This document shows, in pieces, positions 39,051-62,939 of a stretch of DNA of 64,000 nucleotides. Both the position numbers and the translations under genes were made by a program. Below the pieces are notes generated by a model. It saw only the letters and a list, made by a program, of their open reading frames with translations, was not told the DNA's origin and ran no database searches. Numbering within the stretch: the stretch's first letter is position 1; each line of letters starts with the position of its first letter. The stretch is from NCBI GenBank assembly GCA_037445205.1, contig JBBIKX010000001.1, positions 8,767-72,766 on the forward strand. The letters are read 5' to 3'. The DNA comes from Candidatus Wildermuthbacteria bacterium (GTDB lineage: Bacteria > Patescibacteriota > Minisyncoccia > Minisyncoccales > PEYH01).

Positions 39051-39084
39051 GTTTAAAAATAAAAAATTTTAATTTTTCTCTGTG

Positions 39085-39156: not shown

Positions 39157-39175
39157 AAAATTGAGAATATATTAT

Positions 39176-39250: not shown

Positions 39251-39253
39251 CAA
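39235..39253 (+). repeat. Direct repeat copy 1 (AATCCCCTTGGGTCCGCAA) = 3' end of tRNA-Asp; putative attL
   Basis: Identical 19-mer recurs at 40465-40483. Confidence 0.7.
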
Positions 39254-40531: not shown

Positions 40532-40589
40532 GGTTGAAATTTTTTTTGATTCTGATAGATTGAAAAAATAACCAAAAGGAGGTGAGACA

Positions 40590-41588
40590 GTGTCTTGCGA
40601 TACAGCCGTTATCGTGAATGTGCAGGCGGGCGCGGGAATGACTCGCTGGAAGTTGGCGCATCTTATGCGCCAGTTAAACCGCATTCTTTCTGTGCCCAAG
40701 AGTTGTGTCTGGCTGACTCGGGAAACCGGCGAGAGCAGCGCCACATCCCTGGCATCTTTTGCCCAAAGCAGAGGGGCCAAAGCAGTGATTGTCTTTGGCG
40801 GAGACGGCACGGTTCATCAGGCAGTAAACGGCCTGAAACTGCCCGATCCTTCAATCTCTGTTGGCATTGTGCCCTGCGGTACGGCCAACGTGGTTGCTTC
40901 CTGCCTTGGAATGCCAAGAAATGTCAAAGCGGCGCTGGAAGTCATAAGGGCCGGAATGACAAGAAAGATCGATCTGGGAATCCTGGAGGGAGATGGCCTT
41001 CCAAGATACGCGGTTTCCACGCTAAGCGTGGGACTTGACGCGATGATAAACGAACTGGCGCATCGTGTTAAGCCCCTGTTTCGGAAATACCATCTGCCAT
41101 CCATCTTGGGCTACATTCCGCCTCTTCTTAGATACACTCTTAATGAAGTTCCGCTCTACGATGTAGCTGTCAAAAAGGATGGATTGGTTTTTTGCGAAAG
41201 GATATCCTTTCTGGCAGTAACAAACACTCCATGGTATGGAGGCGGATTGGTGGACAGAACTGCCAAGCTTGACGACGGGCTGTTTAACATGATATGCGCC
41301 AGAAAGATCAGGTCCCGCGATCTTCCCTGGTGGATGTTTCAGATGTGGCAGGGAAATCACATCTATTATCCCAAGGTTTTTCTGCCCTGCTCTTCGTTTT
41401 CAGGATTAAGCATAAGTTCTGACTTTCCCTTGCCCGCGCAGATTGACGGACAGATTCTGCCCGCCCGGAAGAACATCGCAATCTCTGTCGTTCCCCGCCT
41501 CCTGCAGGTTTTCGCACCTTTGCCCCAACCAGAAAGAACAAAGCATTCTGGTTGGGGTTGTTTTTTTGATATGTCCAGGTTCAGATAG
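40590..41588 (+). CDS. Lipid kinase of the YegS/BmrU/DgkB family (diacylglycerol-kinase catalytic domain)
   Basis: 332 aa, GTG start 8 nt after AGGAGGTG; VIVFGGDGTVHQAVNGL (GGDG) and VTNTPWYGGGL; about 57% GC. Confidence 0.8.
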   Translation: MSCDTAVIVNVQAGAGMTRWKLAHLMRQLNRILSVPKSCVWLTRETGESSATSLASFAQSRGAKAVIVFGGDGTVHQAVNGLKLPDPSISVGIVPCGTANVVASCLGMPRNVKAALEVIRAGMTRKIDLGILEGDGLPRYAVSTLSVGLDAMINELAHRVKPLFRKYHLPSILGYIPPLLRYTLNEVPLYDVAVKKDGLVFCERISFLAVTNTPWYGGGLVDRTAKLDDGLFNMICARKIRSRDLPWWMFQMWQGNHIYYPKVFLPCSSFSGLSISSDFPLPAQIDGQILPARKNIAISVVPRLLQVFAPLPQPERTKHSGWGCFFDMSRFR

Positions 41589-41647
41589 ATATTGACCAAA
41601 ATATTCTTTTATGATATAATTTGGATATCCTAAGGAGGTGATGCGTG

Positions 41648-41815
41648 ATGAAGGCGGGTATAGTGATTTTCCGGCATACACAAGTAGAAACGCTGCAGGC
41701 GACGGTTAACGCGTTTCTCAAGGTTCACGCTCCACATATGGAGAACCTTGAGCATCAGCTGGTAGTGACTCCAGACGGCACTATCGTCTTGACCCTGCTT
41801 TATCGGGCTAAGTAG
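41648..41815 (+). CDS. Small GC-rich hypothetical protein (55 aa)
   Basis: Manual translation MKAGIVIFRHTQVETLQATVNAFLKVHAPHMENLEHQLVVTPDGTIVLTLLYRAK; TAAGGAGGTG SD 6 nt upstream; below ORF-track cutoff. Confidence 0.5.
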   Translation: MKAGIVIFRHTQVETLQATVNAFLKVHAPHMENLEHQLVVTPDGTIVLTLLYRAK

Positions 41816-41837
41816 GGTTCGTAAGGAGGGAGGAACG

Positions 41838-42101
41838 ATGCGTAAGCTCTTTGCGGCGATTGTCGGACTCTACCGTCGGCTCTGGATGATTGAGCCCCGC
41901 CGTTTCAAACGGGGACAAATCATCCAGTTCGAAGACTGGCGCGATGGCATTAGAGTTGCCAAAGCCAGATACCTGGTTCTCGGCAATACACCCTCCGAGA
42001 AGAGGTACGTCCTGGAGGGTGTTGGGCCCGGCAACAAGGGGAGGCGCGAGCGCCTTCGCTTCCGCTGGGTTGACAAACACGCACATTTGGTGCGCGGCTG
42101 A
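41838..42101 (+). CDS. GC-rich hypothetical basic protein (87 aa)
   Basis: GTAAGGAGGGAGG SD; no known domain. Confidence 0.55.
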   Translation: MRKLFAAIVGLYRRLWMIEPRRFKRGQIIQFEDWRDGIRVAKARYLVLGNTPSEKRYVLEGVGPGNKGRRERLRFRWVDKHAHLVRG

Positions 42102-42111
42102 AATGCCTGTT

Positions 42112-42155
42112 CCGCCCGGGACTAAGGAGGAGTTCCGGGCGGTTGTTGTTTTTTG
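42112..42155 (+). terminator. Intrinsic terminator (CCGCCCGG/CCGGGCGG plus TTGTTGTTTTTTG)
   Basis: 8-bp GC stem, long loop, U-tract after the 87-aa ORF. Confidence 0.6.
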
Positions 42156-42204
42156 ATGAAGTTTCTGGTATCGTATCAAGTATCGCACATTGGGAGGTGG
42201 AACG

Positions 42205-42348
42205 GTGCACAAATGGGTAATCTTTGCGGTAGTGGTGATCCCAAGCATTCTCATCGGTTCCCTTATCTGCCTTTTCCAAGGAAAGGGCAGAAGAGTGTGG
42301 TCCTTCGCTAAGGGGAGAGTCTTTGCTTGGGCGGAAACGGATTGGTGA
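42205..42348 (+). CDS. Tiny hydrophobic membrane peptide (47 aa), GTG start
   Basis: VHKWVIFAVVVIPSILIGSLICLFQGKGRRVWSFAKGRVFAWAETDW; GGGAGGTGG SD 5 nt upstream; hairpin AACCGGC...GCCGGTT downstream. Confidence 0.4.
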   Translation: MHKWVIFAVVVIPSILIGSLICLFQGKGRRVWSFAKGRVFAWAETDW

Positions 42349-42352
42349 ACAC

Positions 42353-42369
42353 AATCCTCTTGGCACTTG
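42353..42369 (+). repeat. Degenerate third copy of the tRNA-Asp 3' repeat (AATCCTCTTGGCACTTG, 11/17 match) at the right edge of the GC-rich island
   Basis: Aligned by eye to AATCCCCTTGGGTCCGC; sits where GC-rich DNA reverts to AT-rich. Confidence 0.3.
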
Positions 42370-42439
42370 TTAACCGGCGCATCTTCTGATGGGCCGGTTC
42401 ATCTTTTAACAAAAAATGCTCCATTTTTTGATTTGATTT

Positions 42440-49367: not shown

Positions 49368-49913
49368 ATGCCCAAGCAACAATTGCCCGAACAGCGAAAA
49401 TGGTACGCAATCCACACATATTCGGGATATGAAGATGCGGTTTCAAGAAATCTCAAGCAGAGGATTGAGTCTTTGGGAATGGAAGATAAAATTTTCAGCG
49501 TTCTGGTTCCCAAAGAAAAAAAAATTAAAATTAAGAACGGAAAACGATATTCCATTGAAGAAAAAATTTATCCGGGATATGTTTTGGTAGAAATGATTGT
49601 CACAGACGATTCTTGGTATGTGGTCAGAAACACTCCCAATGTTACGGGATTCGTCGGCGCTGGCACTACGCCCGTGCCTCTTTCCGAAGAGGAAATATCG
49701 GTTCTGAAAAATAGGATGGAGGGAGAGACGCCCAAATACCAGATAAGTTTTAAAATAAGCGACCATGTAAAAATTATTGATGGCCCTTTCAAAGATTACG
49801 AAGGAAAGGTTTCAGAAATAAATCAAGACGAGGGAAAAATTAAGGTAATGATAAATCTATTTGGAAGAGATACGCCAGTTGAATTAGATTCCCTGCAAGC
49901 CAAAAAAATATGA
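49368..49913 (+). CDS. nusG: Transcription antitermination factor NusG
   Basis: 181 aa; NGN and KOW domains. Confidence 0.93.
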   Translation: MPKQQLPEQRKWYAIHTYSGYEDAVSRNLKQRIESLGMEDKIFSVLVPKEKKIKIKNGKRYSIEEKIYPGYVLVEMIVTDDSWYVVRNTPNVTGFVGAGTTPVPLSEEEISVLKNRMEGETPKYQISFKISDHVKIIDGPFKDYEGKVSEINQDEGKIKVMINLFGRDTPVELDSLQAKKI

Positions 49914-49990
49914 TTCCCGCCTTCGGCAGGACCCCGTCTTTCTCTAACGAGAAATTATGATTCCCGCCTTCGGCAGGACCCCGTCTTTCT
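49909..49990 (+). repeat. Tandem direct repeat: 35-nt unit TATGATTCCCGCCTTCGGCAGGACCCCGTCTTTCT x2 (period 47 nt) in the nusG-rplK spacer
   Basis: Copies at 49909-49943 and 49956-49990; each opens a mini-[14 protein letters not shown]... Confidence 0.7.
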
Positions 49991-50006
49991 AAAAACTTTA
50001 AAAATT

Positions 50007-50429
50007 ATGAAAAAAATACAAACAAAAGTTAAACTCCATATCGCCGCCGCTCAGGCTAATCCCGCCCCTCCTATCGGTCCCGCCCTTGCGCAACACGGAA
50101 TAAACATCGCTGACTTTTGCCAGAAGTTTAATGCCGCAACTAAAAATCTGGCAGGTTATCAGATTCCTGTTGAAATATCAATATACGAGGACAGGACTTT
50201 TAATTTTAAAATAAAACAGCCCCTTGTCAGCGATCTTTTAAAAAAGGCAGCGGGCATTGAGAAAGGGTCGGGCGAGCCGAATAAAATTAAGGCTGGAATA
50301 ATCACCAAAGAGCAGTTAAAAGAGATTGCCCAGAAGAAATTAGACGATTTAAACACAAAAAACATTGATGCCGCAATGAAAATTATTGAAGGACAGGCAA
50401 GATCAATGGGAATTGAAATTAAAAATTAG
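50007..50429 (+). CDS. rplK: 50S ribosomal protein L11
   Basis: 140 aa; [14 protein letters not shown] motif. Confidence 0.95.
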
Positions 50430-50434
50430 TTTTT

Positions 50435-51265
50435 ATGACCCAGTTTGACGAGCAGTATAAACAAGCAATCTGGGAAGTAATGAACGGAGGTACGGAAATT
50501 TACAGCGCAAGACAGAAATGTCATACCAAAGCTTTTCCGGGCATAACCTTTAATTTAGACAAAGGATTTCCTCTGCTTACTTTGAGAAAAATTCCTGTTA
50601 AAATTTTTGTCGCTGAACAATTCTGGTTTTTGATGGGCGAAAAAGACCCCAAGGTTTTTTTAAAAAAATTTACTGCCATATGGGATGATTTTGCCGATCA
50701 AAATGGATTAGTTTTGGGCGCTTATGGCTATCGCTGGAGGAAGCATTTTGGGAAAGATCAAATAGCCAATTTGTTGAGCCTTCTTTCCCAGGATCCAAGT
50801 TCGCGTCACGGAGTTGTGGTGGCGTGGGATCCCTCAGACGACATCAGGACCCTTGATTCAAAAAAGAAAAACGTTCCCTGCCCCTATACTTTCACTGTTA
50901 ATATTATCGGCAATAAGCTTCATATTCATATTATTATAAGGTCAAACGATATGATTCTTGGCTGTCCTCACGATATTGCGGGATTTGCGCTTTTGCAAAG
51001 GATTTTGGCCGGAAAGCTGGGGGTAAAGACAGGAAAGCTTACTTGTTCCATCAGCAATGCCCACATTTACGATATTCATTACAATGCGGCATGGGAGATG
51101 CTTGAAAGAAAAAACAATCATCCCGAAATTATTTTGGACGCAGAAGAAAATTGGTTTGACAGGGCGGAGAAGGGAGATGAATCGCTTGCTCAAGAAATTA
51201 TAGATACCATTGCAAGACAATATAGCCCGATGAATCCCATTAAGGGCTTAAAAATTATTTTATAA
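50435..51265 (+). CDS. thyA: Thymidylate synthase (ThyA type)
   Basis: 276 aa; folate-dependent TS motifs. Confidence 0.93.
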   Translation: MTQFDEQYKQAIWEVMNGGTEIYSARQKCHTKAFPGITFNLDKGFPLLTLRKIPVKIFVAEQFWFLMGEKDPKVFLKKFTAIWDDFADQNGLVLGAYGYRWRKHFGKDQIANLLSLLSQDPSSRHGVVVAWDPSDDIRTLDSKKKNVPCPYTFTVNIIGNKLHIHIIIRSNDMILGCPHDIAGFALLQRILAGKLGVKTGKLTCSISNAHIYDIHYNAAWEMLERKNNHPEIILDAEENWFDRAEKGDESLAQEIIDTIARQYSPMNPIKGLKIIL

Positions 51266-51270
51266 ATTAT

Positions 51271-51777
51271 ATGAAAATAATTTTAGTAATGGCAATCACG
51301 CTTGATGGGAAAATTGCCAAGACAAAAGACCATTTTCCAAACTGGACGTCAAAGGAGGATAAAAACTTCTTTGCCAAAATTTCAAAAAAGCACAAGGTCG
51401 TCTTAATGGGAAAGAACACTTTTGATACCTTCAAAAAACCGCTCAAAGACAGATTAAATGTGGTTTTTACAAATAAAAAAAATCTGGCGAAGATAAAAAA
51501 TGTAATGTGGGTTTCGGGCAAAATAAGTCCGATTTTAAAAAAGCTGGAAAAGAGGGGATATAAATCGGCGGTTCTTGGCGGAGGAGCAATGTTGAACGCA
51601 GAGTTCTTAAAGGAAAAATTGATAGATGAGGTTATAGTCACAATCAATCCCAAAATCTTTGGGCGAGGGATATCTTTGTTTGAAGGAGATTTTGATATTG
51701 ATTTAAAACTTTTAAAAGTGGAAAATATTAATAAAGATACGATAGCTCTTCGTTATAGGCCGGTGTTTTGTAATTAA
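51271..51777 (+). CDS. folA: Dihydrofolate reductase
   Basis: 168 aa; MKIILVMAITLDGKIA N-terminus; adjacent to thyA. Confidence 0.85.
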   Translation: MKIILVMAITLDGKIAKTKDHFPNWTSKEDKNFFAKISKKHKVVLMGKNTFDTFKKPLKDRLNVVFTNKKNLAKIKNVMWVSGKISPILKKLEKRGYKSAVLGGGAMLNAEFLKEKLIDEVIVTINPKIFGRGISLFEGDFDIDLKLLKVENINKDTIALRYRPVFCN

Positions 51778-51786
51778 ATTAAAAAT

Positions 51787-52443
51787 ATGCCCCTATCAAA
51801 ACCTGAAATCATAAAATCCATCCAAGAAGAGAAAATTAAATTTGAACCGTCTCTTGATAAATTTCAGCTTCAGCCCCATTCCATTGATTTGCGGCTTGGT
51901 TGGAATTTTTATATACCAAAAAACTGGGCAATCACGGAAAAGGGAAGGGTTGGCGTAAGTATTGATTATTTGGACACGCAATCCCAAAAAGACAACTTTG
52001 ATTTAATCAAATTAAAACCCGGTCAGTATTTTGAAATTTTGCCAAAAGAATTCATTATTGCTTCGACAATGGAAAAGGTGGTTATAGAAGCCGATAAGCT
52101 AATGGCATTGTTGTATCCCAGAAGCTCTTTTACAAGAAAAGGGTTGTTCATTGCCAGCGGAATCGTTGATGTAAAATACAGCGGATATCTGGCTCTTTCA
52201 GTGATAAACAATACAGAAACCCAGATTATAAGGCTATATCCGGGCGAAAGAGTGTGCCAGCTGGTCTTTCATTTTTTAAGCTCTGCTTTGTCGCCAGAAG
52301 AGGCAATTAAGCACGGGATAAGCGATTCCAAATATTTAAAAGCGGCTCCTTATTCTCTTGAGGCAAAAAGCGACAATCAGGAAGAAATAGATCTAATCAG
52401 ATTTGGAAAGATTGGCGAATTGAAAGAAAAATTCAAATTATAA
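51787..52443 (+). CDS. dcd: dCTP deaminase
   Basis: 218 aa; dUTPase-like fold. Confidence 0.9.
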   Translation: MPLSKPEIIKSIQEEKIKFEPSLDKFQLQPHSIDLRLGWNFYIPKNWAITEKGRVGVSIDYLDTQSQKDNFDLIKLKPGQYFEILPKEFIIASTMEKVVIEADKLMALLYPRSSFTRKGLFIASGIVDVKYSGYLALSVINNTETQIIRLYPGERVCQLVFHFLSSALSPEEAIKHGISDSKYLKAAPYSLEAKSDNQEEIDLIRFGKIGELKEKFKL

Positions 52444-52449
52444 AAGCCG

Positions 52450-52908
52450 ATGGGAAAAGAAGGAATAAAATATCCCTATTTGCCGGAAGCAAGAGAAATA
52501 AAATTTGTTTCAGAAAAAAATATTTTTATCAGGGAGGCGAAGAAAATTTGCAAAAAGAAAGGATGCATTGCGCATCCAACAGGGGCGGTTTTGGTCAAAA
52601 AGAATAAAATCATAGGGAAGGGGACTAACGCCGCAAAAAAAATAAAAGATTGTCCAAGGGCTTTGAAAAAAAGCAAGACCGGCCAAGATTATCATTTATG
52701 CAAAAAAATTTGCCTGCAGGAAGGACACGCAGAAGCGATGGCGATTAAAAGCGCAAAAGAAAAAAAGGAGAAAATCAGAGGAGCAGATTTATATCTTTAT
52801 GGCCATTGGTGGTGCTGTAAAGATTGTTGGGATAAAATCATCAAAGAAGGGATAGGAGAGGTTTATTTAATTGAAAACGCTTTTGATAAATTTCATAAGC
52901 GAATATGA
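52450..52908 (+). CDS. Deoxycytidylate (dCMP) deaminase, CDA zinc family
   Basis: 152 aa; HAEAMAI and CCKDC zinc ligands. Confidence 0.8.
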   Translation: MGKEGIKYPYLPEAREIKFVSEKNIFIREAKKICKKKGCIAHPTGAVLVKKNKIIGKGTNAAKKIKDCPRALKKSKTGQDYHLCKKICLQEGHAEAMAIKSAKEKKEKIRGADLYLYGHWWCCKDCWDKIIKEGIGEVYLIENAFDKFHKRI

Positions 52909-53540
52909 AAAAAAATCCTTATCTTGGAAAATTCATAGTTTTTGAAGGGCTGGACGGGTCCGGACAAAGCACCCAAGCATCAAAACTGGTGGATTATTTC
53001 AATGAAAAAAACCAGATATTTAAATTTGGGCATACCGGAGCGCATCTTACCAAAGAGCCGACATCCGGAATTATTGGAGGATTAATCAGGGGCCAGCTAT
53101 CTTTTGACTGGAAATCTTCTCAAGAATGCCTCCAGCTTTTATTTGCGGCAGATCGGGCGTACCATCTAGAAAAGGAGATTTTGCCTCTTTTGGAAATGGG
53201 CGTAACGGTGGTTTGCGATCGTTATTTTTTTTCTTCTTGCGCCTTCGGGGCGCTGGAGGCCGATCAGGAATGGCTTTTAAAAATCAATGAAAAGTTTCTT
53301 TTGCCTGATTTGATATTCCTGCTTGCTGTTTCTCCCAAAATCTGCATTGAAAGAATAAAAAGAAATCGTTTTGAAATAAATCTTTTTGAAAACGAAGAAA
53401 TATTAAAAAATGTGTGGGAGAAATACTTGATATTGGCACATCAAAATAAAAACACGCATATTATAGACGGGGAACGGCCGATCAATGAGATTTTTGAGGA
53501 GATTAAAGAAATAACTGATAGGAAATTTAACCAACGATGA
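52905..53540 (+). CDS. tmk: Thymidylate kinase
   Basis: 211 aa; FIVFEGLDGSGQSTQ P-loop. Confidence 0.9.
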   Translation: MKKNPYLGKFIVFEGLDGSGQSTQASKLVDYFNEKNQIFKFGHTGAHLTKEPTSGIIGGLIRGQLSFDWKSSQECLQLLFAADRAYHLEKEILPLLEMGVTVVCDRYFFSSCAFGALEADQEWLLKINEKFLLPDLIFLLAVSPKICIERIKRNRFEINLFENEEILKNVWEKYLILAHQNKNTHIIDGERPINEIFEEIKEITDRKFNQR

Positions 53541-55024
53541 TAAATTCATCAAAAAAATATATTCCCGTCATCGGGCTTGAAATACATACGGAATTAAAAA
53601 CTAATTCCAAAATGTTTTGCGGGTGCAAAAACGATTCGCAGGAAAAAGAAGCGAATTTGAATATTTGTCCTGTTTGCATGGGTCATCCCGGCACTCTCCC
53701 CGTTATAAACAAAACAGCGATTCGTTTTGTCATAAAAACAGGGATTGCTCTGAATTGTAAAATTACAAAAGAGTCGCGATTTGAAAGAAAAAATTATTTT
53801 TATCCCGATCTTCCAAAAGGATATCAGATTTCTCAATACAAAGAGCCGTTTTGTTTTAATGGCTTTTTAAAAATAAATAATAAAAAAATAAGAATTAGAA
53901 GGGTTCATTTGGAAGAAGATACTGCCCGCCTGATACACTCCAAAAATGGATATTCGCTGATTGATTTCAACCGCGCCGGCATTCCTTTAATGGAGCTTGT
54001 AACGGAGCCGGACATAGAATCTTCTAAAGAGGCATCAGACTTCGCAAAAAAACTTCAGTTGATCCTGAGATATTTAAATGTTTCCAGCGCTGACATGGAA
54101 AAAGGGCAATTGAGAGTGGAGGCAAATATTTCATTAATAAACGCAAATTTTAAAGCAAAAAACGCAAAACTAGGAACAAAGGTGGAGATCAAAAATTTAA
54201 ATTCGTTTAGGGCAGTTGAGAGGGCGATAGAATATGAAATAGAAAGGCAAAAGGAGTTACTATTAAATGATGAGAGGGTGGCGCAGGAAACAAGAGGATG
54301 GGATCCTCAATCAGAAAGAACCTTTCCCCAGAGAGAAAAAGAAGAGGCGCATGATTACCGCTACTTTCCAGAGCCGGATTTGCCCCAGATTTATATAAAA
54401 AAAGACTATCTGGAGGCGATAAAAAAAGGAATTCCCGAACTTCCCGATCAAAAAATAAAAAGATTAAAAGAAGAATTTTTTGTTAACGAACAATCAGCCC
54501 AGATTCTTGTCTCTAACAGAGATTTAAGCGAGTATTTTGAAAAATCGGCAAGCGAGCTTTTAAGATGGTCAAAAGACAAAAGATTAGATCAAAAGAGCCA
54601 AAAAGAATTGATACAGAGCGCCGCCAACTATCTTTTGACAGATTTACTCGGCTGTCTTTCAGGGAAAGAATTTTCAGAAAAAGATTTTCCCATAACGCCT
54701 GAAAATTTCGGAGAGTTTATCGCTCTTGTCCGCGATAAAAAATTCACAAGCAAAATGGCAAAAATTCTTTTAGGAGAGATGTTTGATTCCGGCCAAGATC
54801 CCTCAACCATAATAAAAAAAAGAGGATTAATCCAGACGGACAACGAAGATGAGATTAAAAAAATAGTGCAAAAAATAATTTCATCAAATCCTCGGGCATT
54901 TGAAGATTATAAAAAAGGAAAAGAAAATGCTCTTCAATTCATGATTGGACAAATGATGAAAGAAACTAAAGGCACTATAAATCCCCAGATGGCAAAGAAA
55001 GCGTTGATTGATTTTTTAAAATAA
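53537..55024 (+). CDS. gatB: Asp/Glu-tRNA amidotransferase subunit B
   Basis: 495 aa; IGLEIHTELKT...MFCGC N-terminus. Confidence 0.95.
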   Translation: MINSSKKYIPVIGLEIHTELKTNSKMFCGCKNDSQEKEANLNICPVCMGHPGTLPVINKTAIRFVIKTGIALNCKITKESRFERKNYFYPDLPKGYQISQYKEPFCFNGFLKINNKKIRIRRVHLEEDTARLIHSKNGYSLIDFNRAGIPLMELVTEPDIESSKEASDFAKKLQLILRYLNVSSADMEKGQLRVEANISLINANFKAKNAKLGTKVEIKNLNSFRAVERAIEYEIERQKELLLNDERVAQETRGWDPQSERTFPQREKEEAHDYRYFPEPDLPQIYIKKDYLEAIKKGIPELPDQKIKRLKEEFFVNEQSAQILVSNRDLSEYFEKSASELLRWSKDKRLDQKSQKELIQSAANYLLTDLLGCLSGKEFSEKDFPITPENFGEFIALVRDKKFTSKMAKILLGEMFDSGQDPSTIIKKRGLIQTDNEDEIKKIVQKIISSNPRAFEDYKKGKENALQFMIGQMMKETKGTINPQMAKKALIDFLK

Positions 55025-55135
55025 TATATAATACTTAAAATCCAGAATAAGGAGGTGGTCGCCGGGATACAGTCCAAAGAGGGCGAGGGGCGTTTTCGGA
55101 AGCAAAACCGGATCTTTCTTGCGAAAGGAGCATCG

Positions 55136-55333
55136 ATGCCAGCAGTAAATCTTGTTAACGTGGCGAGGTCATTGCCGGACGAAGAGGCGGAGAGGCTTTT
55201 GCTCATCGAGCAAAGCAATCCTGATTGCCTCAGGGCGCTTTTTGCGGTCGTTCTGAGCGCCGGAACGCTGGAAAAAGCTGTTCCTCTGATCCAACGAGTT
55301 CTTGCTGGCGCACCCTTGTTTCCGGGCGGATGA
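55136..55333 (+). CDS. GC-rich small hypothetical protein (65 aa), cassette C
   Basis: MPAVNLVNVARSLPDEEAERLLLIEQSNP...; AAAGGAG SD 7 nt upstream; second AAGGAGGTGG at 55050; shares locus with the miaA 3' end on the opposite strand. Confidence 0.45.
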   Translation: MPAVNLVNVARSLPDEEAERLLLIEQSNPDCLRALFAVVLSAGTLEKAVPLIQRVLAGAPLFPGG

Positions 55334-56341
55334 AACTGGATGGGGCTCCCTTCGGGAGCCCCCTTGTTTTGTTAAAAAAGTATTTATTATTTTTCTGGCT
55401 TTTTTTTTATCCCCAACCCAATTTACTCTTTTGTCTTTTTTAAACCAGGTTATTTGTCTTTTGGCGTAACTTTCAATTGCTTTTTGGAGCATTCCGACCA
55501 TTTCATCATAGCCAATTTTTTTTTGAAGATAGCAAGCAATATATCTGTATTCCAATCCAAATTCTTCAAGCCGTTTCCAGGAAACGCCGTCTTTTCTTAG
55601 CGCTCTGACCTCTTTTATCATCCCCTGATTTAATCTTTTGTATAGCCGTTTTCTGATTAAATTTTTTAGCTCTTTTTTTTCTTTCTTGATGCCGATAATG
55701 AGCAAATCAAACAATTGGCTTTTTTTTATGACGGGTACCGGTTTTTTTGATTTCAAAACTATTTCAATTGCCCGGATTAATCTGCGGGGATTTTTTTTAT
55801 CAATAATTTTTGCCCGCCGCGGGTCCAGTTTTTTTAACATTTGATAAAGCTGGTTTGGCAATTTTTTTTCCAGTTTTTTCCTTAATTTCCAGTCCGGCGG
55901 AATTTTTGGGATGACGATTCCGTCAACGACTGATTGAATATAGAATCCGGTGCCGCCGCAAAGAATGGGCAGCTTATTTCTCTTATGGATTTCCCTTATT
56001 TTTTTTAATGCCATTTTTTGATACTGGGCGACCGTAAATTTCCTTTTTGGAGAAGCAACATCCAAAAGATGATGTTGGATGCCTCTATAAAGATATGACT
56101 GTTTTGAAATTTGAGATTTAGGACTTGGAGTTTGTTTAGAAATTAGAAATTTGGAATTAGAAATTTTATCTCGTGGAACCTTCCCGGTTCCGATATCCAT
56201 TTTGCGATAAACCTGACGGGAATCGGCCGAAATCACCTCTCCGTTAAAATTTTTTGCCAGTGCTACCGCCAAATCGCTTTTTCCCGAAGCAGTGGGTCCA
56301 AGAATAACTAACAATATTTTTCGGTCCGTTTTTTTTGACAT
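55169..56341 (-). CDS. miaA: tRNA dimethylallyltransferase with about 75-aa aberrant C-terminal extension read through a GC-rich cassette
   Basis: 390 aa; ILGPTASGKSDLA P-loop; canonical C-terminus (...RQITWFKK...) reached about 75 aa before the stop. Confidence 0.88.
   Translation of the reverse strand: MSKKTDRKILLVILGPTASGKSDLAVALAKNFNGEVISADSRQVYRKMDIGTGKVPRDKISNSKFLISKQTPSPKSQISKQSYLYRGIQHHLLDVASPKRKFTVAQYQKMALKKIREIHKRNKLPILCGGTGFYIQSVVDGIVIPKIPPDWKLRKKLEKKLPNQLYQMLKKLDPRRAKIIDKKNPRRLIRAIEIVLKSKKPVPVIKKSQLFDLLIIGIKKEKKELKNLIRKRLYKRLNQGMIKEVRALRKDGVSWKRLEEFGLEYRYIACYLQKKIGYDEMVGMLQKAIESYAKRQITWFKKDKRVNWVGDKKKARKIINTFLTKQGGSRREPHPVSSARKQGCASKNSLDQRNSFFQRSGAQNDRKKRPEAIRIALLDEQKPLRLFVRQ
55342..55374 (+). 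terminator. Intrinsic terminator with UUCG tetraloop (GGGGCTCCC-TTCG-GGGAGCCCC plus CTTGTTTTGTT)
   Basis: 9-bp GC stem, TTCG loop, U-tract; lies inside the extended miaA reading frame on the other strand. Confidence 0.6.
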
Positions 56342-56387
56342 AATCCCAAGAATATTATATCATTATAAATCCCAAAAAGGAGGTGGT
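56335..56387 (+). promoter_or_regulatory. Promoter (TTGACA - 17 - TATCAT) plus conserved leader and AAGGAGGTGG for cassette B
   Basis: Consensus -35; leader ATATTATATCATTATAAATCCCAAAAAGGAGGTGG is near-identical to the cassette A leader. Confidence 0.45.
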
Positions 56388-56389
56388 TA

Positions 56390-56683
56390 ATGTCGTATTA
56401 TTTAGCAATAATGTTTATGTTGCTAAGCGCAGGCTTTGCAAGTGCGGGGTTTAGGGTGATCCGTTATGCCCTTCGAGGAAAGCTGACAGGCACTATGCTT
56501 GATAGAGGCATGATACTCGGTACTGTCATCGTGCTTGTTGGAGTGGGGCTCGCCACGATTCCCATCATCTTCCAGAGCGGGATAAGATGGTGGTGTCTTG
56601 CGCTGGCGCTTGTGGAGGCAGTGGTCTGTATTGGGCTCTGGATGCTGCATGTCTTCTCGTCTGCGTCAATGGATTCACCCTAA
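56390..56683 (+). CDS. GC-rich small membrane protein (3 TM), cassette B
   Basis: 97 aa; strong SD; about 50% GC; opposite orientation between miaB and miaA. Confidence 0.6.
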   Translation: MSYYLAIMFMLLSAGFASAGFRVIRYALRGKLTGTMLDRGMILGTVIVLVGVGLATIPIIFQSGIRWWCLALALVEAVVCIGLWMLHVFSSASMDSP

Positions 56684-56694
56684 GGCGTGGATTG

Positions 56695-56730
56695 CGAGGG
56701 CTCTCTTGTGCGGGGGCCCTCCTTTTTTAT
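56695..56730 (+). terminator. Intrinsic terminator (GAGGGC/GCCCTC plus T6) ending cassette B; the miaB stop codon sits in its T-tract
   Basis: GC hairpin and TTTTTT. Confidence 0.55.
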
Positions 56731-58061
56731 TCCATCAATTTTCCTCTCAGTCCGTATGGACCAATGTTTATTATTTTGGCTTTAACAAAATTTCCTAAAA
56801 TATTTTTATCTGATTTCAATCTAATGGTTTGATAATGCCTTGTTTTTCCGACATAAAAATCATTTTTTTTGGTGAGTATCAAAACTTCCGCGGTTTTTTT
56901 AAAAAACTTCTTGTTAAAATTTAAAATGGTTTTTTTTAATACTTTGAATAATTCTTTTTCTCTTGTTTTTTTCTTAAAGTTGGGGACATCGTCGTTTAAA
57001 TGAAGGGCGGCTGTTTGAGGCCTTTTAGAATAAGCCGCAATATATCCAAACGCAAATCCGATTTTTTCAAAATTATTTTTTGTATTTTCAAATTGTTTTT
57101 TGGTCTCGCCGGGAAATCCTACAATTACATCAGAAGATACAGCCACTTCTTTTTCGATGCCGCATCTGTATTTTTTAAAATTATTTCTTATTTTTTTAAT
57201 AAGCGCTTTATATTGAGATACAGTGTAGGGCCTATTCATTTTTTTAAGGATTTCATTGTCTCCTGATTGAATTGGAAGATTAATATAGGGCGTTACTTTA
57301 TGGCATTTTGCCATTGTTTTAATTAGTTCGTCGCTTAAATCTTTTGGATGAGAAGAGGTAAATCTTATCCAAAAATTCCCCTCAATATCATTTATCATTT
57401 TAAGAAGCGTTGGAAAATTTATTTCTTTTTCTTTTTTCACTTTAAGGTTTGTGTTTTGGATTTTACCATTATAGGAATTGACATTCTGTCCCAACAGCCA
57501 TACTTCTTTTGCTCCGCTTAAAACGGCCTTTTTTATTTCACAAATAATATCTTGGGCCGGCCTTGAGATTTCTTTTCCTCTTACATAAGGTACGACGCAA
57601 TAACTGCAGAAATTATTGCACCCGGTCATTATCGGAATATAGGCAACAACAGGGGATTGATATTTAGGCATTAATTCAAAATAGTGTTTTTTTTTGAATT
57701 CAACCGACCTAATTTTAAAACCAAGCTTTTTTAATATCTCGGGCAATTTGGGAAGCTCATTTATGTCAAAGATTTCATCGCAGAATTTATTAAGTTCTTT
57801 TTTGTCTTTTTCTAAGATACATCCCGTTAAAATAATTTTATATTTTATATTTTTATTTTCATATTTGAGCCTTATCTTTTTAATTCGAGCGCTTGCTCGA
57901 TCTATCGCCGACTGTCTGACTGAACAGATATTAAACACTATCAAATCCACCCCATCGCATTTATTGGCATGATTAAATCCTGATTTTTCCAAAACGCCTG
58001 CGATTCTTTCGGAGTCAGATTTATTCATTTGGCACCCAAAAGTGATAATATGATATTTCAT
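56727..58061 (-). CDS. miaB: tRNA methylthiotransferase (MiaB/RimO radical-SAM family)
   Basis: 444 aa; MTTF CxxxC and radical SAM CNNFCSYC motifs, TRAM C-terminus. Confidence 0.9.
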   Translation of the reverse strand: MKYHIITFGCQMNKSDSERIAGVLEKSGFNHANKCDGVDLIVFNICSVRQSAIDRASARIKKIRLKYENKNIKYKIILTGCILEKDKKELNKFCDEIFDINELPKLPEILKKLGFKIRSVEFKKKHYFELMPKYQSPVVAYIPIMTGCNNFCSYCVVPYVRGKEISRPAQDIICEIKKAVLSGAKEVWLLGQNVNSYNGKIQNTNLKVKKEKEINFPTLLKMINDIEGNFWIRFTSSHPKDLSDELIKTMAKCHKVTPYINLPIQSGDNEILKKMNRPYTVSQYKALIKKIRNNFKKYRCGIEKEVAVSSDVIVGFPGETKKQFENTKNNFEKIGFAFGYIAAYSKRPQTAALHLNDDVPNFKKKTREKELFKVLKKTILNFNKKFFKKTAEVLILTKKNDFYVGKTRHYQTIRLKSDKNILGNFVKAKIINIGPYGLRGKLME

Positions 58062-58092
58062 ATCTTTTCTTTAAGATAAACGCTAAAGAATA

Positions 58093-58536
58093 TTATTCTC
58101 CGATTATTTGAATCTGGATATTTCTTTTTTTAGGATAAGCGAGTTCTATGAAAAGAATGCTCTGCCATAAGCCGAGCTGCAGCTTTCCTTCAATTATATT
58201 TAGGCAGACGCTTGTTGGTATATGCAATGCTCTGCAATGAGAGTGGGCGTTCGGTTTCTCATCCGGACACATATTTACGGTTCTTATTTCAAAATTATTG
58301 TGATTATACGCTTTATTTTTCGGAGAACAATGCTCTAAGTGTTCTTTAATGTCCTGTAAAAGCAACGGTTCGTTTTCATTTACAAAAACAGAGGCGGTTG
58401 TGTGAAGAGACTGAATATTAATAATTCCGTTTTTTACCGCAGTTTTTTTGGTTATTTCTTTAATCCTTTCCGTGATATCGATAATTTGAAGTTCTTCGAC
58501 GGTATCAATAGAGATAATCGAATTTTTGATAATCAT
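58093..58536 (-). CDS. YjbQ/UPF0047 family protein (secondary thiamine-phosphate synthase-like)
   Basis: 147 aa; HTTASV motif, size typical. Confidence 0.75.
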   Translation of the reverse strand: MIIKNSIISIDTVEELQIIDITERIKEITKKTAVKNGIINIQSLHTTASVFVNENEPLLLQDIKEHLEHCSPKNKAYNHNNFEIRTVNMCPDEKPNAHSHCRALHIPTSVCLNIIEGKLQLGLWQSILFIELAYPKKRNIQIQIIGE

Positions 58537-60287
58537 TTTTTTTCTTTGATTTCTTTTTTTATTTTTTCAATGAAATCACGCAATGAAATAACACCTAAAT
58601 TTCCTTTTTCTCTGCTTCTCATGCTTATTTTTTGTTCTTTTTCTTCTTTATCCCCGGCAACAACAACGTAAGGAATTTTTTGAATTTCAGCTTCCCTTAT
58701 TTTTTTAGAAAGCGTTTCATTATCGTCTTTAATTTCCACTCTGATACTTTCTTTTTCTAATGCGTTTTTTATTCCTTGGGAATAAATCAAATGCCTTTGA
58801 GCAATCGGCATTATTGAAACCTGGACCGGAGAAAGCCAAAGGGGCAAAGCGCCTTTATAATGCTCTAATAAAAACGCAATGGTTCTTTCAATCGCGCCGA
58901 TTGAAGAACGATGAATCACAATCGGTTCTTTTTTTGAGCCGTCTTGGTCGATATAAGAAAGATTGAATCTTTTTGAGGCTAAAAAATCGTATTGCACGGT
59001 AAAAGCGGTTTCTTCTTTGCCGGCGAAATTTTTTATTTGAATATCTATTTTGGGCCCATAGAAAGCGGCTTCACCCTTTGCCTCAAAAAAAGGAGATTTT
59101 CTTTCGATTAAAACATCTCGCAAAATATTTTCCGCGAGAAGCCAGGATTTTTTATCCTGATAATATTTTTTAGCATTTTTTAGGTCGCCCAAAGACAATC
59201 TGTATCTGTAATTTTTATTTTTTTCCAAGCCCAGGGCGAAAGATACGCATTCTATCAAATCCAGAACTTTTTTAATTTCTTCTTTTGCCATTTCTTTTTG
59301 GCAGATGATATGGGAATCCGCCAAACAAAAAGATCGCACCCTCATCAGACCGGTTAATTCCCCGGATTTTTCGTATCTATACTGCTTTGCCAATTCGGCC
59401 AAGCGGAAAGGAAGATCTCTGTAAGATCTTGGAGCGTCAAGGTAAAGTTGATAATGATGCGGGCAGGTCATTGGTCTTAGAATCAGCTTTTCTTCGTCAA
59501 CCTGCATCACTGGATACATCGCATCTTTATAATAAGGGTAATGTCCGGAAACTTCATATAGAGCAACGCGAGCCAGATCGGGTGTGTAAATATGCATATA
59601 GCCCCTTTTAATTTCTTCTTCAACTATAAACCTTTCCAGTTCTCTTCTGATTATTGATCCCTTGGGCGTGAAAAGGGGTAATCCTTTGCCTACCAATTCG
59701 GAGAATGTGAACAAATTAAGCTTTTTTCCAATTATCCTATGGTCTCTTTTTTCCGCTTCTTTAATCAGTTCAAAGTGATTATCCAGTTCTTTTTTATTTT
59801 TAAAAGCAACCCCATAAATTCTTGTCATCATTTTATTCTTTTCGCTGCCCCTCCAATAAGCGCCCGCAATCTTAGTTAATTTAAAACAATCTTCTGGAAT
59901 TTCTTTTGTTGATTTTATATGCGGACCTCCGCACAAATCAATAAAATTTCCTGATTCATATATCGTAACCATTTTTTCTTTAAGCTCTTTGATCAGTTCA
60001 ATTTTATACGGTTGATTTTTAAAGATCTTTTTTGCTTCAATTTTAGAAACAAATCTTTTTTTAAATTTGATATTTTGTCGAATTAATTCTTTCATTTTTG
60101 TCTCAATTCTTGATAAATCATCAACGCTAAATCCGCTCCCATCTGAAGTCGTAGCGGGCAAGTCAAAATCATAATAAAATCCATTTTCAATAACCGGACC
60201 TATGCCAAACTTTGCTTTAGGATAAAGTTCTTTAACCGCATGCGCCATTATATGCGCCAGCGAATGTCTGATGGTGTCTAATTTCAT
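58533..60287 (-). CDS. thrS: Threonyl-tRNA synthetase (no N-terminal TGS domain)
   Basis: 584 aa; HSLAHIMAHAV editing motif; class II core. Confidence 0.95.
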   Translation of the reverse strand: MKLDTIRHSLAHIMAHAVKELYPKAKFGIGPVIENGFYYDFDLPATTSDGSGFSVDDLSRIETKMKELIRQNIKFKKRFVSKIEAKKIFKNQPYKIELIKELKEKMVTIYESGNFIDLCGGPHIKSTKEIPEDCFKLTKIAGAYWRGSEKNKMMTRIYGVAFKNKKELDNHFELIKEAEKRDHRIIGKKLNLFTFSELVGKGLPLFTPKGSIIRRELERFIVEEEIKRGYMHIYTPDLARVALYEVSGHYPYYKDAMYPVMQVDEEKLILRPMTCPHHYQLYLDAPRSYRDLPFRLAELAKQYRYEKSGELTGLMRVRSFCLADSHIICQKEMAKEEIKKVLDLIECVSFALGLEKNKNYRYRLSLGDLKNAKKYYQDKKSWLLAENILRDVLIERKSPFFEAKGEAAFYGPKIDIQIKNFAGKEETAFTVQYDFLASKRFNLSYIDQDGSKKEPIVIHRSSIGAIERTIAFLLEHYKGALPLWLSPVQVSIMPIAQRHLIYSQGIKNALEKESIRVEIKDDNETLSKKIREAEIQKIPYVVVAGDKEEKEQKISMRSREKGNLGVISLRDFIEKIKKEIKEKK

Positions 60288-60329
60288 AACGATTAATTAT
60301 ATTATTAATTTTTCAGGATTTTTTCAAAT

Positions 60330-61928
60330 TTAGGAAAGAGGGATATTGATGTAAAACAAAGAACCCTTCTCTGTTTTTTTGGGGGTTGCCCAGACAATTC
60401 CCCTATGAAGTTCGGTAAACTTTCTTGCGATATAAAGACCCAGCCCCGCCCCTCCTGTCCAGCTTTCTTCGCCCGCTTTTCCCCGCATAAAGCTTTGGAA
60501 GAGATTTGCAGCTTCTTCTTCGCTCATTCCAAGCCCCGTGTCAGAAATTTTTATAAGCGCCCTGTTTTCTTTAACAGTGCTGATAATTTCTATCCCGCCC
60601 TTCTCTGTGTATTTGATTGCGTTATCAATAATATTTATAAAAACCTGCCTTATTTTTTCTTTGTCTAACGACATTAAAGGAAGAGGAATATTCTTTTTAT
60701 ATCTTAAATACAGATCTTTCTGATGGGCGGCAATTTTTAATTGTTCCACCACTTCTCCAATTAAATCCTCAAGCGAGGTTTTTTCAATGTTCATTTCCAT
60801 TTTTCCCGCTTCAATCCGGGAGATGTCTAAAAGATCCTGCACAAGCTTATTAAGCTGGGAAACCACCTGAAAAGAATTTTTTATTGGTTTTTTGATTCCC
60901 CGCGAAACTTCTCCGTAGTTTTCTTCAAGAACCATTGAAAGGTAGCCGCGAACGATGGTTAAAGGGGTTCTCAATTGGTGCGAGGCAATAGAAATAAATT
61001 CTGTTTTCGCCTTGTCCAGCTCCGATAATTTTTCATAAGCAATTTTCAGTTTTTTCGCCATTTCCTCCATTTCTTTCCTCTGCTTTATTTCCCTGAGAAC
61101 GCTTCTTATAAGCAAAACTCCAAAAATCAAAAAAACAAAAAACACAAATCCCTTCCACATATACTGCCAGAGGTGAACCGCGTCAAAAATGTTAAAAAAC
61201 AAAACGATGCTTATAATGCCTACAATCAGGGCGGCAATTACAACCTTTATGTCAAAAAGTCGGTGCTTGACGATGGCATAGGAGAGTATTAGCGGGTAAA
61301 ACGCAACAAAAAAATTTCCATAGGGCGGAAAAGAAATTCCATACCACAATGGAAAATTTGTTGCGCCCCCTCCAAACCCAATTATTATTGCCAGAAAAAT
61401 ATATTTTATCTGGTTGCGGATATCGTTAGATGATTTTTTATAGACTTTTAAAAGTTCGTAGCAGGTGTAAGCAATTATCGCGCCGTATGCCCCAAAAAGA
61501 TAAATGGTGTAGACAGGTCCGGCTATCGGCCACCAGGGAAAATTAAGCTGGGGTTTTACATTTTTTACAAAAAGAGGGCTGAAGCTGAATAGAAATAAAA
61601 TTGCTGTAAGCAGGTATCCAGAAATAATGACCGCCCTTCTTTTTTTATGTAAATCATAAATTGTAAAAATCCAATGAAGGAATGTTATCGGTATGAAAGT
61701 TGATCCAATACTTAAGCATTTCGCCCAAAATAACGCAGTTTCTTTATTAAGACTTAGCTGCCAGAAACCGTAACTGACTCCCCAAAAAACAAGCGCGACA
61801 TTCATTAGCAAAAAAGTTTTATGGGAAAGCTTTTTTGGATTTTTATAGAATACAAAAAAACCGAAAATTATAGCCGATAGTCCGTTGATAAAACCAGATA
61901 AAGCGAATATATTCATATACAAAAACAA
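60330..61928 (-). CDS. Membrane sensor histidine kinase (multi-TM sensor, HisKA, HATPase_c); no cognate regulator in window
   Basis: 532 aa; about 6 N-terminal TM; ASHQLRTPLT H-box; G1/G2 boxes. Confidence 0.85.
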   Translation of the reverse strand: MFLYMNIFALSGFINGLSAIIFGFFVFYKNPKKLSHKTFLLMNVALVFWGVSYGFWQLSLNKETALFWAKCLSIGSTFIPITFLHWIFTIYDLHKKRRAVIISGYLLTAILFLFSFSPLFVKNVKPQLNFPWWPIAGPVYTIYLFGAYGAIIAYTCYELLKVYKKSSNDIRNQIKYIFLAIIIGFGGGATNFPLWYGISFPPYGNFFVAFYPLILSYAIVKHRLFDIKVVIAALIVGIISIVLFFNIFDAVHLWQYMWKGFVFFVFLIFGVLLIRSVLREIKQRKEMEEMAKKLKIAYEKLSELDKAKTEFISIASHQLRTPLTIVRGYLSMVLEENYGEVSRGIKKPIKNSFQVVSQLNKLVQDLLDISRIEAGKMEMNIEKTSLEDLIGEVVEQLKIAAHQKDLYLRYKKNIPLPLMSLDKEKIRQVFINIIDNAIKYTEKGGIEIISTVKENRALIKISDTGLGMSEEEAANLFQSFMRGKAGEESWTGGAGLGLYIARKFTELHRGIVWATPKKTEKGSLFYINIPLS

Positions 61929-61983: not shown

Positions 61984-62859
61984 TTATGCTGGTTTATAGA
62001 CACGGTTTACCAGCACTTGGCGGGCAAACGTCACCCTCCATGTCGGGCCTACGAATCCGACTTCCCGGAGCAGTTGTTCCCATTGCGGAATTGCGAGGAA
62101 GGTGTATGTTCCTTCTTTTCCCTTTCTTTGTATTTCAAGGGCGTGACGAAGTATGCTTGTGCCCTGAAGAATTCGGCTAAAATCCCGATTTCTTATGTAG
62201 GGCAGAGGATTGAGCATGTCAGGAAGAGAAGCGACAAACACCCATTGGAAGTGAACGTTTTGTCTGGGAGTAGACCAGACGATATGTCCTCCGGGCTTGA
62301 GCACCCTATGCATCTCTCTGAAAACTTCCCTCATGGCCCTTATGCCTTTTTCGCTTCGAAAGTCAGTTGCATAGGGGATAACTAAATTTGCGATAATTCC
62401 ATCAAAGTGGTTATCGTCGAAGGGAAGTTCTTCGCCAAGATGAGCGAAAACAAGATGCATGGGCAACGTGGGGTGAAGAGATTGCGTTTTCCGCGCCGGA
62501 TCAAGAACTATATCCAGACCAACTACCAATTTGATAGTTCTGCCGGATTTGTTCCATGCCAAGAGAGCCATCTTGGCGGGTCCGCAGCCTACATCCAGCC
62601 AAACTTCGTTAGCTTTGGGCTGGATTAATCCGGCGACTGTCGTTGTAAGGTTGTGGTAGGGTCTTGCCTTTTCCAGGTTTTTGTAAATCCTTGCGTAATC
62701 CCTCCAAAACGCCAACTCTTGTCCCCAAGAGCGGATCCTTCCTCTTGTGAAGGGCGAAAGCCCGTTCTCATTTGCTTCCAGCCACTCTTCTATGCTCTCC
62801 GTGCTTAATCCTTCTCCAAAGCACGGCCCAAGGATCTCTGATATGCTTTTGGTTTTCAT
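61984..62859 (-). CDS. GC-rich class I SAM-dependent methyltransferase (small-molecule/UbiE-like rather than DNA MTase)
   Basis: 291 aa; LDVGCGPAKMA motif I; no (D/N)PP(Y/F); own TTGACA-17-TATAAA promoter and AAGGAGGTAAGGA SD upstream. Confidence 0.8.
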   Translation of the reverse strand: MKTKSISEILGPCFGEGLSTESIEEWLEANENGLSPFTRGRIRSWGQELAFWRDYARIYKNLEKARPYHNLTTTVAGLIQPKANEVWLDVGCGPAKMALLAWNKSGRTIKLVVGLDIVLDPARKTQSLHPTLPMHLVFAHLGEELPFDDNHFDGIIANLVIPYATDFRSEKGIRAMREVFREMHRVLKPGGHIVWSTPRQNVHFQWVFVASLPDMLNPLPYIRNRDFSRILQGTSILRHALEIQRKGKEGTYTFLAIPQWEQLLREVGFVGPTWRVTFARQVLVNRVYKPA

Positions 62860-62939
62860 TCCTTACCTCCTTGCTTGCCCGATAAATCAAAGGGCTGTGT
62901 TTATTTTTTATAGCCGTATAGCAGGAATTTGTCAATTTT

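Follow-up and report, generated by a model that had tools for sequence, protein, structure and literature searches.

The window analysed here is a 64,000-nucleotide stretch of DNA from Candidatus Wildermuthbacteria bacterium (contig JBBIKX010000001.1), in which the genes gatB (plus strand) and miaA (minus strand) converge and a self-contained small plus-strand unit of foreign-like composition fills the gap between them. The miaA open reading frame (ORF; 55169–56341, minus strand) encodes a MiaA protein of 390 amino acids, and its last 65 codons begin at the position where orthologous genes stop and run through the small unit on the opposite strand. A preliminary description, made from the sequence alone, had noted the excess length of the protein, attributed it to a small cassette that landed on the 3′ end of miaA, and suggested either a junk tail or a pair of antisense-overlapping genes.

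The core of MiaA (amino acids 1–325; 55367–56341, minus strand) contains a complete IPPT domain, as judged from PF01715, TIGR00174 and an AlphaFold2 (AF2) model. The Pfam IPPT profile PF01715 is matched over its entire length (positions 1–243 of 243, E = 1.1e-63) up to amino acid 302, and the match to TIGR00174 (E = 3.2e-67; 226.8 bits against a cutoff of 148.65) extends to amino acid 311. The P-loop (GPTASGKS), DSRQVY, GGTGFY and related motifs are intact, as in members of the MiaA family, and all columns invariant among 62 orthologues are retained; the nearest named matches come from metagenome-assembled genomes (MAGs) of Ca. Pacebacteria and Minisyncoccales. Alignment to solved MiaA structures, which are 316–340 amino acids long, reaches only to about residue 335. 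Among the 62 aligned orthologues, 57 end 14–22 residues past the invariant Trp308, and long ends are seen only in the window protein (82 residues past this position) and in the protein P0003 (80 residues). The AF2 model, based on the same 62-sequence alignment, has a predicted local distance difference test score (pLDDT) above 90 across most of the core and places the native C-terminal helix at amino acids 311–324. The profile ends, the solved structures and the orthologue alignment bear out the earlier observation that the native C-terminus lies far short of the stop codon. An internal insert (…RDKISNSKFLISKQTPSPKSQISKQSYLY…; amino acids 57–82, window ~56095–56170, minus strand) that varies among lineages separates the P-loop region from the conserved H89; its length differs among orthologues, and the AF2 pLDDT falls below 50 at amino acids 61–78. 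Some relatives (P0064 and P0066) have a MiaA fused to a radical-SAM MiaB-like domain (654–667 amino acids; PF01715, PF04055 and PF00919), and in their genomes the adjacent miaB and miaA genes appear merged.

Codon-by-codon comparison places a glutamine codon, CAA (Gln326; 55364–55366, minus strand), at the position of the orthologous stop. The 3′ end of miaA in the window reads TTT TTA ACA AAA CAA GGG GGC TCC CGA AGG GAG CCC (F L T K Q G G S R R E P). The corresponding sequence in the relative L096 is TTT TTA ACA AAA TAA AGG GGC (F L T K stop), in an otherwise near-identical context, and that in L002 is TTT TTG CAA AAA AAG TAA GGG GGA (F L Q K K stop). The CAA of the window is thus a sense codon at the orthologous stop position and one substitution away from the TAA of L096. 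In these relatives the A-rich final codons of miaA complement the U-tract of the convergent terminator, and the stop abuts its hairpin. The extension of about 75 residues proposed earlier is therefore real, with a revised length of 65 amino acids (Q326–Q390) when counted from the orthologous stop, or 79 when counted from the end of the TIGR00174 match. After Gln326, the rest of the tail (amino acids 327–390 and the TGA stop at 55169–55171; 55169–55363, minus strand) crosses the hairpin (GGSRREP) and continues in exact codon register on the strand opposite codons 65 down to 13 of the small ORF, 53 of whose 65 codons are thus overlapped; the TGA is the complement of the TCA codon for Ser12. The tail Q326–Q390 carries a net charge of about +9 and includes one cysteine and one histidine. 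No zinc-finger pattern or other motif and no Pfam domain was found in it. Its AF2 pLDDT is 26–55, with one weak helix at amino acids 367–378; the AF2 input includes only two aligned sequences over this stretch, which makes the low confidence weak evidence of disorder.

The unit opposite the tail is a GC-rich island (55.9% GC over 55049–55372, against 38.7% for the window) with a sharp jump at the junction, and the additional miaA codons are, as the preliminary description stated, a reverse-strand reading of this unit with its 65-residue ORF. A promoter-like element, TTGATT-17-TATAAT (55004–55032, plus strand), was located by a consensus scan with 10 of 12 matches and may drive the unit; it shares sequence with the final codons and stop codon of gatB, which ends at 55024, and its −10 region is kept in the relatives L001 and L002. 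The 5′ leader of ~97 nt (55039–55135, plus strand) opens with AATCCAGAATAAGGAGGTGGT, an extended Shine-Dalgarno (SD)-like motif that has no start codon at a usable distance. Its first ~50 nt are conserved in L001 and L002; the three alleles differ there by 1-nt indels, and this part is therefore not coding. No conserved structure was found in the leader. The two AAGGAGG sites reported earlier reduce to one exact copy, at 55049, and a second, weaker SD of sequence AAGGAG at 55125–55130. The small ORF (MPAVNLVNVARSLPDEEAERLLLIEQSNPDC...; 55136–55333, plus strand) starts with ATG, encodes 65 amino acids, has a third-codon-position GC content (GC3) of about 0.52–0.53 and is open at the same length in L001, with 55% amino acid identity. 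A longer 92-residue ORF from a GTG at 55055 was rejected as the real start, because the GTG overlaps the SD and the leader shows indels and frame changes among the alleles.

The unit ends in an intrinsic terminator (55342–55373, plus strand), a 9-bp G+C hairpin (55342–55362) followed by the U-tract CTTGTTTTGTT. The hairpin, GGGGCTCCC-TTC-GGGAGCCCC, has a perfect 9-bp stem and a 3-nt loop; the UUCG-tetraloop terminator of the preliminary description was right as to a hairpin with a T-run and wrong as to the loop, which does not form a cUUCGg in register. Read in the complement, the U-tract supplies the final native codons of miaA (F-L-T-K). Past the hairpin in the minus-strand direction lies ATCCAGTTTCATCC; since this is no U-tract, the hairpin is not a terminator for miaA.

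For the small protein, AF2 predicts four short helices (pLDDT 69.5) from essentially single-sequence input. A fold search against the PDB gave no match (best E = 5.8), and neither did searches of Pfam, NCBIfam, PADLOC and PHROGs. A profile search of 5.8 billion proteins and a HMMER search of 1.84 billion representatives recovered a single homologue, the L002 allele. In the gene calls of the public assemblies L095, L103 and L001 the extended miaA is annotated and the small plus-strand ORF is left out; on L095 a further GC-rich unit of the window, cassette D (see below), is missing as well. This omission by gene callers leaves the small-ORF family nearly invisible in protein databases.

A long tail is to be expected once the stop has been lost. 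In the antisense frame that miaA enters, stops arise only opposite TTA, CTA or TCA, and a GC-rich gene rarely uses these codons: together they make up 1.5% of the codons in the window's GC-rich genes. Under the codon usage of those genes, the probability that the antisense frame is open over ~50 codons is 0.32–0.46, and the antisense frames of two other GC-rich small ORFs in the window are fully open. An alternative genetic code was ruled out, as TGA is the stop codon of 13 of 63 ordinary genes in the window genome. The Logan single-run assembly L095 (SRR11582151) shows one mismatch to window 49961–60443 in 10,483 bp, at 56975 and outside the feature, and encodes an identical 390-residue MiaA. 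Because this independent assembly is identical across the feature, an assembly error does not account for it. Exact-protein look-ups with MiaA and GatB for further strains returned only one Logan contig.

Comparison with relatives indicates that the gap between gatB and miaA is a variable slot. In L002 and L003, whose MiaA is 93% identical to that of the window and whose flanks are 93–100% identical, the same slot holds a different GC-rich allele with the same conserved leader start, a TAA directly before the hairpin and a 317-residue MiaA. The 61-residue ORF of L002 shows 26% amino acid identity to the window ORF (E = 0.002), and the ORFs of L001 and L002 gave no alignment with each other. 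Since the unit of L002 and L003 coexists with a normal stop, the presence of a unit alone is not the cause of the read-through; of the earlier proposal that a cassette created it by landing on miaA, the antisense relation to a separate unit stands, and the cause is instead the CAA that replaces the stop. Sliding identity between the window and L002 delimits a divergent tract of ~540 bp (54885–55425) that takes in the 3′ end of gatB, the whole unit and the last ~20 codons of miaA: identity is 0.97–1.0 outside the tract, 0.7–0.87 in 54885–55033, 0.2–0.4 in 55095–55365 and ~0.6 up to 55424, returning to 0.93 or higher thereafter. This segment looks like an allele-replacement (recombination) tract.

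The more distant relative L001, which encodes P0003 (MiaA 66% identical overall, 73% over the core), carries the window's allele, with a 65-residue ORF that is 55% identical in amino acids and 70% in nucleotides. Its miaA also lacks the stop and has a homologous 63-residue tail, ~50% identical to that of the window; the tail ends differ, lying opposite small-ORF Ser12 in the window and Ser14 in L001. Third-position divergence between the two genomes is 0.38 in the small ORF against 0.37–0.44 in the flanking miaA, gatB and miaB, which suggests co-divergence of the unit with the genome rather than recent transfer. In L101 (987–1004) the site is empty, and 16 bp separate miaA from gatB. Elsewhere the gap holds unrelated orphan ORFs of 60–190 amino acids (L096 4970–5855, L097 4967–5248, L100 5003–5194, L102 4072–4254), and the small gap ORFs of L096, L097/L098, L099/L100 and L102, which measure 60–93 residues, are convergent with miaA, each with its own SD and terminator. 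The layout with two SDs is repeated in the GC-rich unit of L102, which has a 60-residue ORF, and in the 70-residue unit of L096: a strong SD-like site, a leader of ~35–75 nt, a second SD and ATG.

We compared selection on the two strands over the 198-nt overlap between the window and L001, a single genome pair with low power. The small-ORF frame has 14 synonymous against 29 non-synonymous changed codons, where random placement of the same number of substitutions predicts 7.7 ± 2.6 synonymous changes in this frame (p = 0.02). In the tail frame 3 changed codons are synonymous and 40 non-synonymous, and none of the other five frames has so few synonymous changes; the count of 3 is below 7.7, an expectation that was computed for the plus frame and not separately for the tail frame. 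One other frame is rich in synonymous changes (13), the antisense frame that shares the wobble positions of the small ORF; as the wobble positions coincide, it mirrors the small-ORF signal. The synonymous fraction of changed codons is 0.50–0.52 in the flanking housekeeping genes, 0.33 in the small ORF and 0.06 in the tail. The ~50% identity of the two tails is hence not evidence of a selected tail, because constraint on the opposite strand imposes it. The preliminary description had taken an extension shared among orthologues as a sign against its proposal; such sharing occurs once, in P0003 of L001 with its 63-residue tail, and opposite-strand constraint explains it. The window, L095 and L001 all keep the two frames open, and the signal of purifying selection appears in the plus frame only.

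We interpret the locus as a stop-loss extension of miaA into a convergent orphan gene, with a tail that is tolerated and not selected, and assign this reading a probability of about 0.68. A sense codon occupies the conserved orthologue stop and, in the one genome pair compared, the added residues show no purifying selection of their own. With CAA in place of the stop, a ribosome translating the miaA mRNA would continue across the hairpin into the antisense frame that matches the codon register of the small ORF, and translation would end only at the TGA complementary to the TCA serine codon. MiaA would then be made with a 65-residue, arginine-rich, basic and probably disordered tail that the cell tolerates. 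Transcription of the small unit likely starts at its own promoter and ends at its own hairpin. The miaA transcripts should not be terminated there, because no U-tract follows on the minus strand; they would pass the hairpin and overlap the small-gene mRNA in antisense over at least 200 nt. The small ORF is probably translated, and may represent a real but weakly constrained orphan gene. The event is of an ordinary kind and of modest interest, and joins stop-shift extensions, convergent overlaps and open shadow frames.

Several points weigh against this interpretation. Only two independent genomes carry the tail, and the selection test is weak (p = 0.02, in the plus frame). The tail has been kept through ~30% nucleotide divergence without a new stop, for which a rough neutral probability is ~0.1–0.2, an indecisive value. 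The GC3 of the unit stays at ~0.52 in hosts with a GC3 of 0.27–0.39; this could reflect constraint in more than one frame. The codon-position skew of the small ORF is weak ([16, 18, 25] differences), which leaves its coding status only moderately supported. The low AF2 confidence over a tail that just two sequences cover says little about disorder.

Under genuine dual coding, selection would maintain the tail as a working C-terminal module of MiaA, such as a basic arm that binds tRNA, and the small gene on the opposite strand would be functional as well. The net charge of about +9 would be appropriate for an enzyme that binds tRNA, the tail can be aligned in two lineages whose MiaA cores are only 66–73% identical, the GC3 of the unit stays high in both hosts, and eukaryotic tRNA isopentenyltransferases have a C-terminal extension (3eph, 409 amino acids) with a functional role. 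The small number of synonymous changes in the tail frame (3 of 43 changed codons), the differing tail ends, the absence of a tail from the 93%-identical sister strain and from 57 of 62 orthologues, an open frame that chance would provide, and the low AF2 confidence with neither zinc finger nor other motif all speak against it. Dual coding is not supported by the two genomes compared, and we consider it a poor prospect; of the two outcomes offered in the preliminary description, the junk tail fits better than a pair of antisense-overlapping genes. A non-coding plus-strand unit, either a small RNA or decaying foreign DNA, would likewise leave the tail as junk, and is unlikely, if less so. In its favour, the small ORF has the L002 allele as its only homologue among 1.84 billion representative proteins, at an identity of 26%, the ORFs of L001 and L002 gave no alignment, codon-position skew is weak, and the SD may not work in a host in which 7 of 58 genes have one and whose subgroup is often without an anti-SD (PMC9297842). 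Against it stand the synonymous excess in the plus frame, a 61–65-residue ORF with a properly spaced SD-like site in all three alleles, and a compact four-helix model from essentially one sequence. RNA searches point the same way. At Rfam gathering thresholds the whole window yielded only tRNAs, and at E values up to 10 the region 54950–55450 gave chance matches only (best E = 0.56). The fold energies of the three alleles without the terminator are unremarkable (z = −1.2, −1.0 and −0.75), and RNAalifold on two or three sequences found no informative covariation. The sole Rfam matches in the window form a three-tRNA cluster (38977–39251, plus strand) of two tRNA-Met (CAT) and one tRNA-Asp (GTC).

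Insertion of a mobile element resembling a miniature inverted-repeat transposable element (MITE), an insertion sequence or an integron cassette, displacing the miaA stop, would fit the empty site in L101 with its 16-bp gap, the end of L101 homology right after TTTTTTAA, the TTAAAA hexamer at both edges (55035 and 55372) and the weak AT-rich inverted repeats that flank the unit (I1, 22 nt, 77% complementary). These repeats are of low complexity and only 76–77% matched, which makes them unconvincing as terminal repeats or target duplications. The unit is single-copy in the window, and blastn against phage and plasmid DNA gave no match. A scan with the leader pattern GGAGGTGGTNNNCN{4,7}CAGTN{5,10}GGCGAGG produced 37 matches in GTDB (185,579 species genomes), 54 in JGI metagenomes and none in IMG/VR, and no new alleles; all GTDB and JGI matches lie in contigs of 50–78% GC and are therefore taken as chance. 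The unit thus lacks the repetition of a MITE or insertion sequence. It also lacks the features of an integron cassette, its only strong inverted repeat being the terminator hairpin, although attC was not searched with a dedicated model. No transposase, integrase or recombinase was found within ~8 kb on either side, where the neighbours are housekeeping genes. The 3′ junction (CCCC-TT-N-TTTTGTTAAAAAA) is common to the window and the unrelated unit of L096, which argues for replacement of content between conserved ends rather than transposition, and we regard a mobile element as very improbable. A type I toxin-antitoxin system is not indicated either, the predicted product being a soluble four-helix protein of 65 residues with no membrane-spanning segment and no PADLOC match. 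A sequencing or assembly error, or a chimeric join that removed the stop or brought in foreign DNA, might be suspected from the sharp GC jump and from a source that is a MAG. The identity of the Logan assembly across the region, the same architecture in L001 from another sample, and flanks collinear with relatives on both sides make an artefact scarcely credible.

Stop-loss extension, the reading we prefer, has several known counterparts. Vakhrusheva and colleagues reportedly described in 2011 how prokaryotic genes gain C-terminal extensions when their stop codon is lost or shifted. An analogue is known from yeast (PMC4494051). As in such cases, the window gene has a sense codon one substitution away from a stop, translation into sequence outside the gene and an unconstrained tail of low-complexity or disordered character. 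Unlike them, the miaA tail comes from the strand opposite another gene and its terminator hairpin, not from a non-coding 3′ UTR (untranslated region), and it is unusually long at 65 residues and common to two rather distant lineages. Typical convergent overlaps span a few bases. Here, by contrast, 53 of the 65 small-ORF codons are overlapped, with purifying selection in one frame only. Overlaps between convergent (tail-to-tail) genes are known in bacteria (PMC4161906), and the window resembles them in that two convergent ORFs share DNA and the overlap is made by a 3′ extension of one gene. The tail also has the frame relation of shadow ORFs, and its open length is what codon usage predicts, other GC-rich genes of the window being equally open. 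Shadow ORFs are long frames antisense to GC-rich genes, codon-aligned with them and interrupted by stops only opposite TTA, CTA and TCA. Unlike these, the miaA tail is physically joined to a real upstream gene and presumably translated.

Two further systems are less close. The C-terminal zinc-finger extension of eukaryotic tRNA isopentenyltransferases (Mod5/TRIT1; PDB 3eph, 409 amino acids) is functional. The window protein is likewise a MiaA-family enzyme with residues past the bacterial core; unlike Mod5/TRIT1 it has no match to 3eph past query residue 301 and no zinc-finger pattern, and its tail is not conserved in the family. Rickettsia palindromic elements are multi-copy repeats that insert in frame into genes. 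Here too a foreign-looking hairpin segment joins a housekeeping ORF without destroying it, and the difference is that the miaA-side segment is a single-copy unit with a promoter, an ORF and a terminator of its own.

The small gene belongs to a wider set of GC-rich genes in the window. A 4-nt SD core at −20 to −4 is present in only 7 of 58 ordinary genes, against a strong SD in 8 of 8 GC-rich genes. The pattern AATCC-N3-12-AGGAGGT occurs three times (16435, 55039 and 56368), each time at the head of a GC-rich small-gene unit, where 0.03 occurrences are expected; the pattern was derived from its own sites, and the enrichment is post hoc. Tsurumaki et al. (PMC9297842) detected an anti-SD in only 48% of Parcubacteria and report that the lineages without one overlap the group lacking uL1. 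The window contains no 16S gene. At 49368–51265 (plus strand) it carries nusG, rplK (L11) and thyA, with no rplA (L1) after L11, though L1 may lie elsewhere in the genome; the rplK–thyA order fits the uL1-lacking Parcubacteria subgroup of PMC9297842.

Cassette D (56335–56731, plus strand) is a GC-rich unit that separates the start of miaA from the end of miaB. It comprises TTGACA-17-TATCAT followed by AATCCCAAAAAGGAGGTGGTTAATG, a 97-residue ORF (56390–56683) that resembles a three-span membrane protein, and a hairpin (56696–56721) with a T-run into the miaB stop. It is present in L002 and L003 (102 residues, 87% amino acid identity) and absent in L001. Of the codons that differ between the window and L002, 4 changed synonymously and 13 non-synonymously, so that the unit looks nearly unconstrained. 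A third unit (16402–16905, plus strand) shares the 5′ motif (AATCCCAAAAAAGATAAGGAGGTAGTGATG) and is flanked by a map-like gene and a glycosyltransferase-like gene; its GC-rich ORF, which starts with the ATG at 16462, encodes a hydrophobic protein of ~125 residues and is followed by a hairpin and T-run. Between an AT-rich membrane-protein gene and a pheS-like gene lies an island of 1.85 kb and 51% GC (40562–42411, plus strand). It encodes a YegS/DAGK-type lipid kinase (40590–41588; 332 residues; E = 5e-25 to PF00781) together with three small ORFs (56, 87 and ~47–52 residues), each with a strong SD; hairpin terminators are present. A 291-residue gene at 61984–62870 (minus strand; 49% GC), with AAGGAGGTAAGGA before its ATG, looks foreign and is a class I methyltransferase (61984–62859) by synteny with L002 (PF13489, PF08241).

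A bolder reading would make the gatB–miaA gap and the sites at 16435 and 56368 slots for undescribed exchangeable modules, allele 1 of which would encode a dual-coding basic arm of MiaA; we offer it as speculation, with little chance of being correct. Such modules would each consist of a promoter, 5′ UTR, small ORF and terminator, be GC-rich and share the 5′ end AATCC...AAGGAGGT(G/A)GT, a scheme that we hold to be just as doubtful.

On the preferred reading, stop-loss extension, the locus is a clean, well-dated case in which one lost stop beside a convergent GC-rich gene adds 65 residues to an enzyme of an essential pathway, and it illustrates how constraint on the opposite strand can imitate conservation of a tail. 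It also calls for caution in annotation, since gene callers suppressed a probably real small ORF in favour of the extended miaA. The wider setting is a reduced, AT-rich and almost SD-free genome of the candidate phyla radiation (CPR) that holds GC-rich small genes with perfect SDs and a common 5′ motif. This setting, with a slot occupied by different orphan genes in different relatives, is relevant to the acquisition and exchange of accessory genes in CPR bacteria and to the question of SD-led initiation in them. The variable slot, and the question whether the SDs of the GC-rich genes work in this host, are of more interest than the miaA tail itself.

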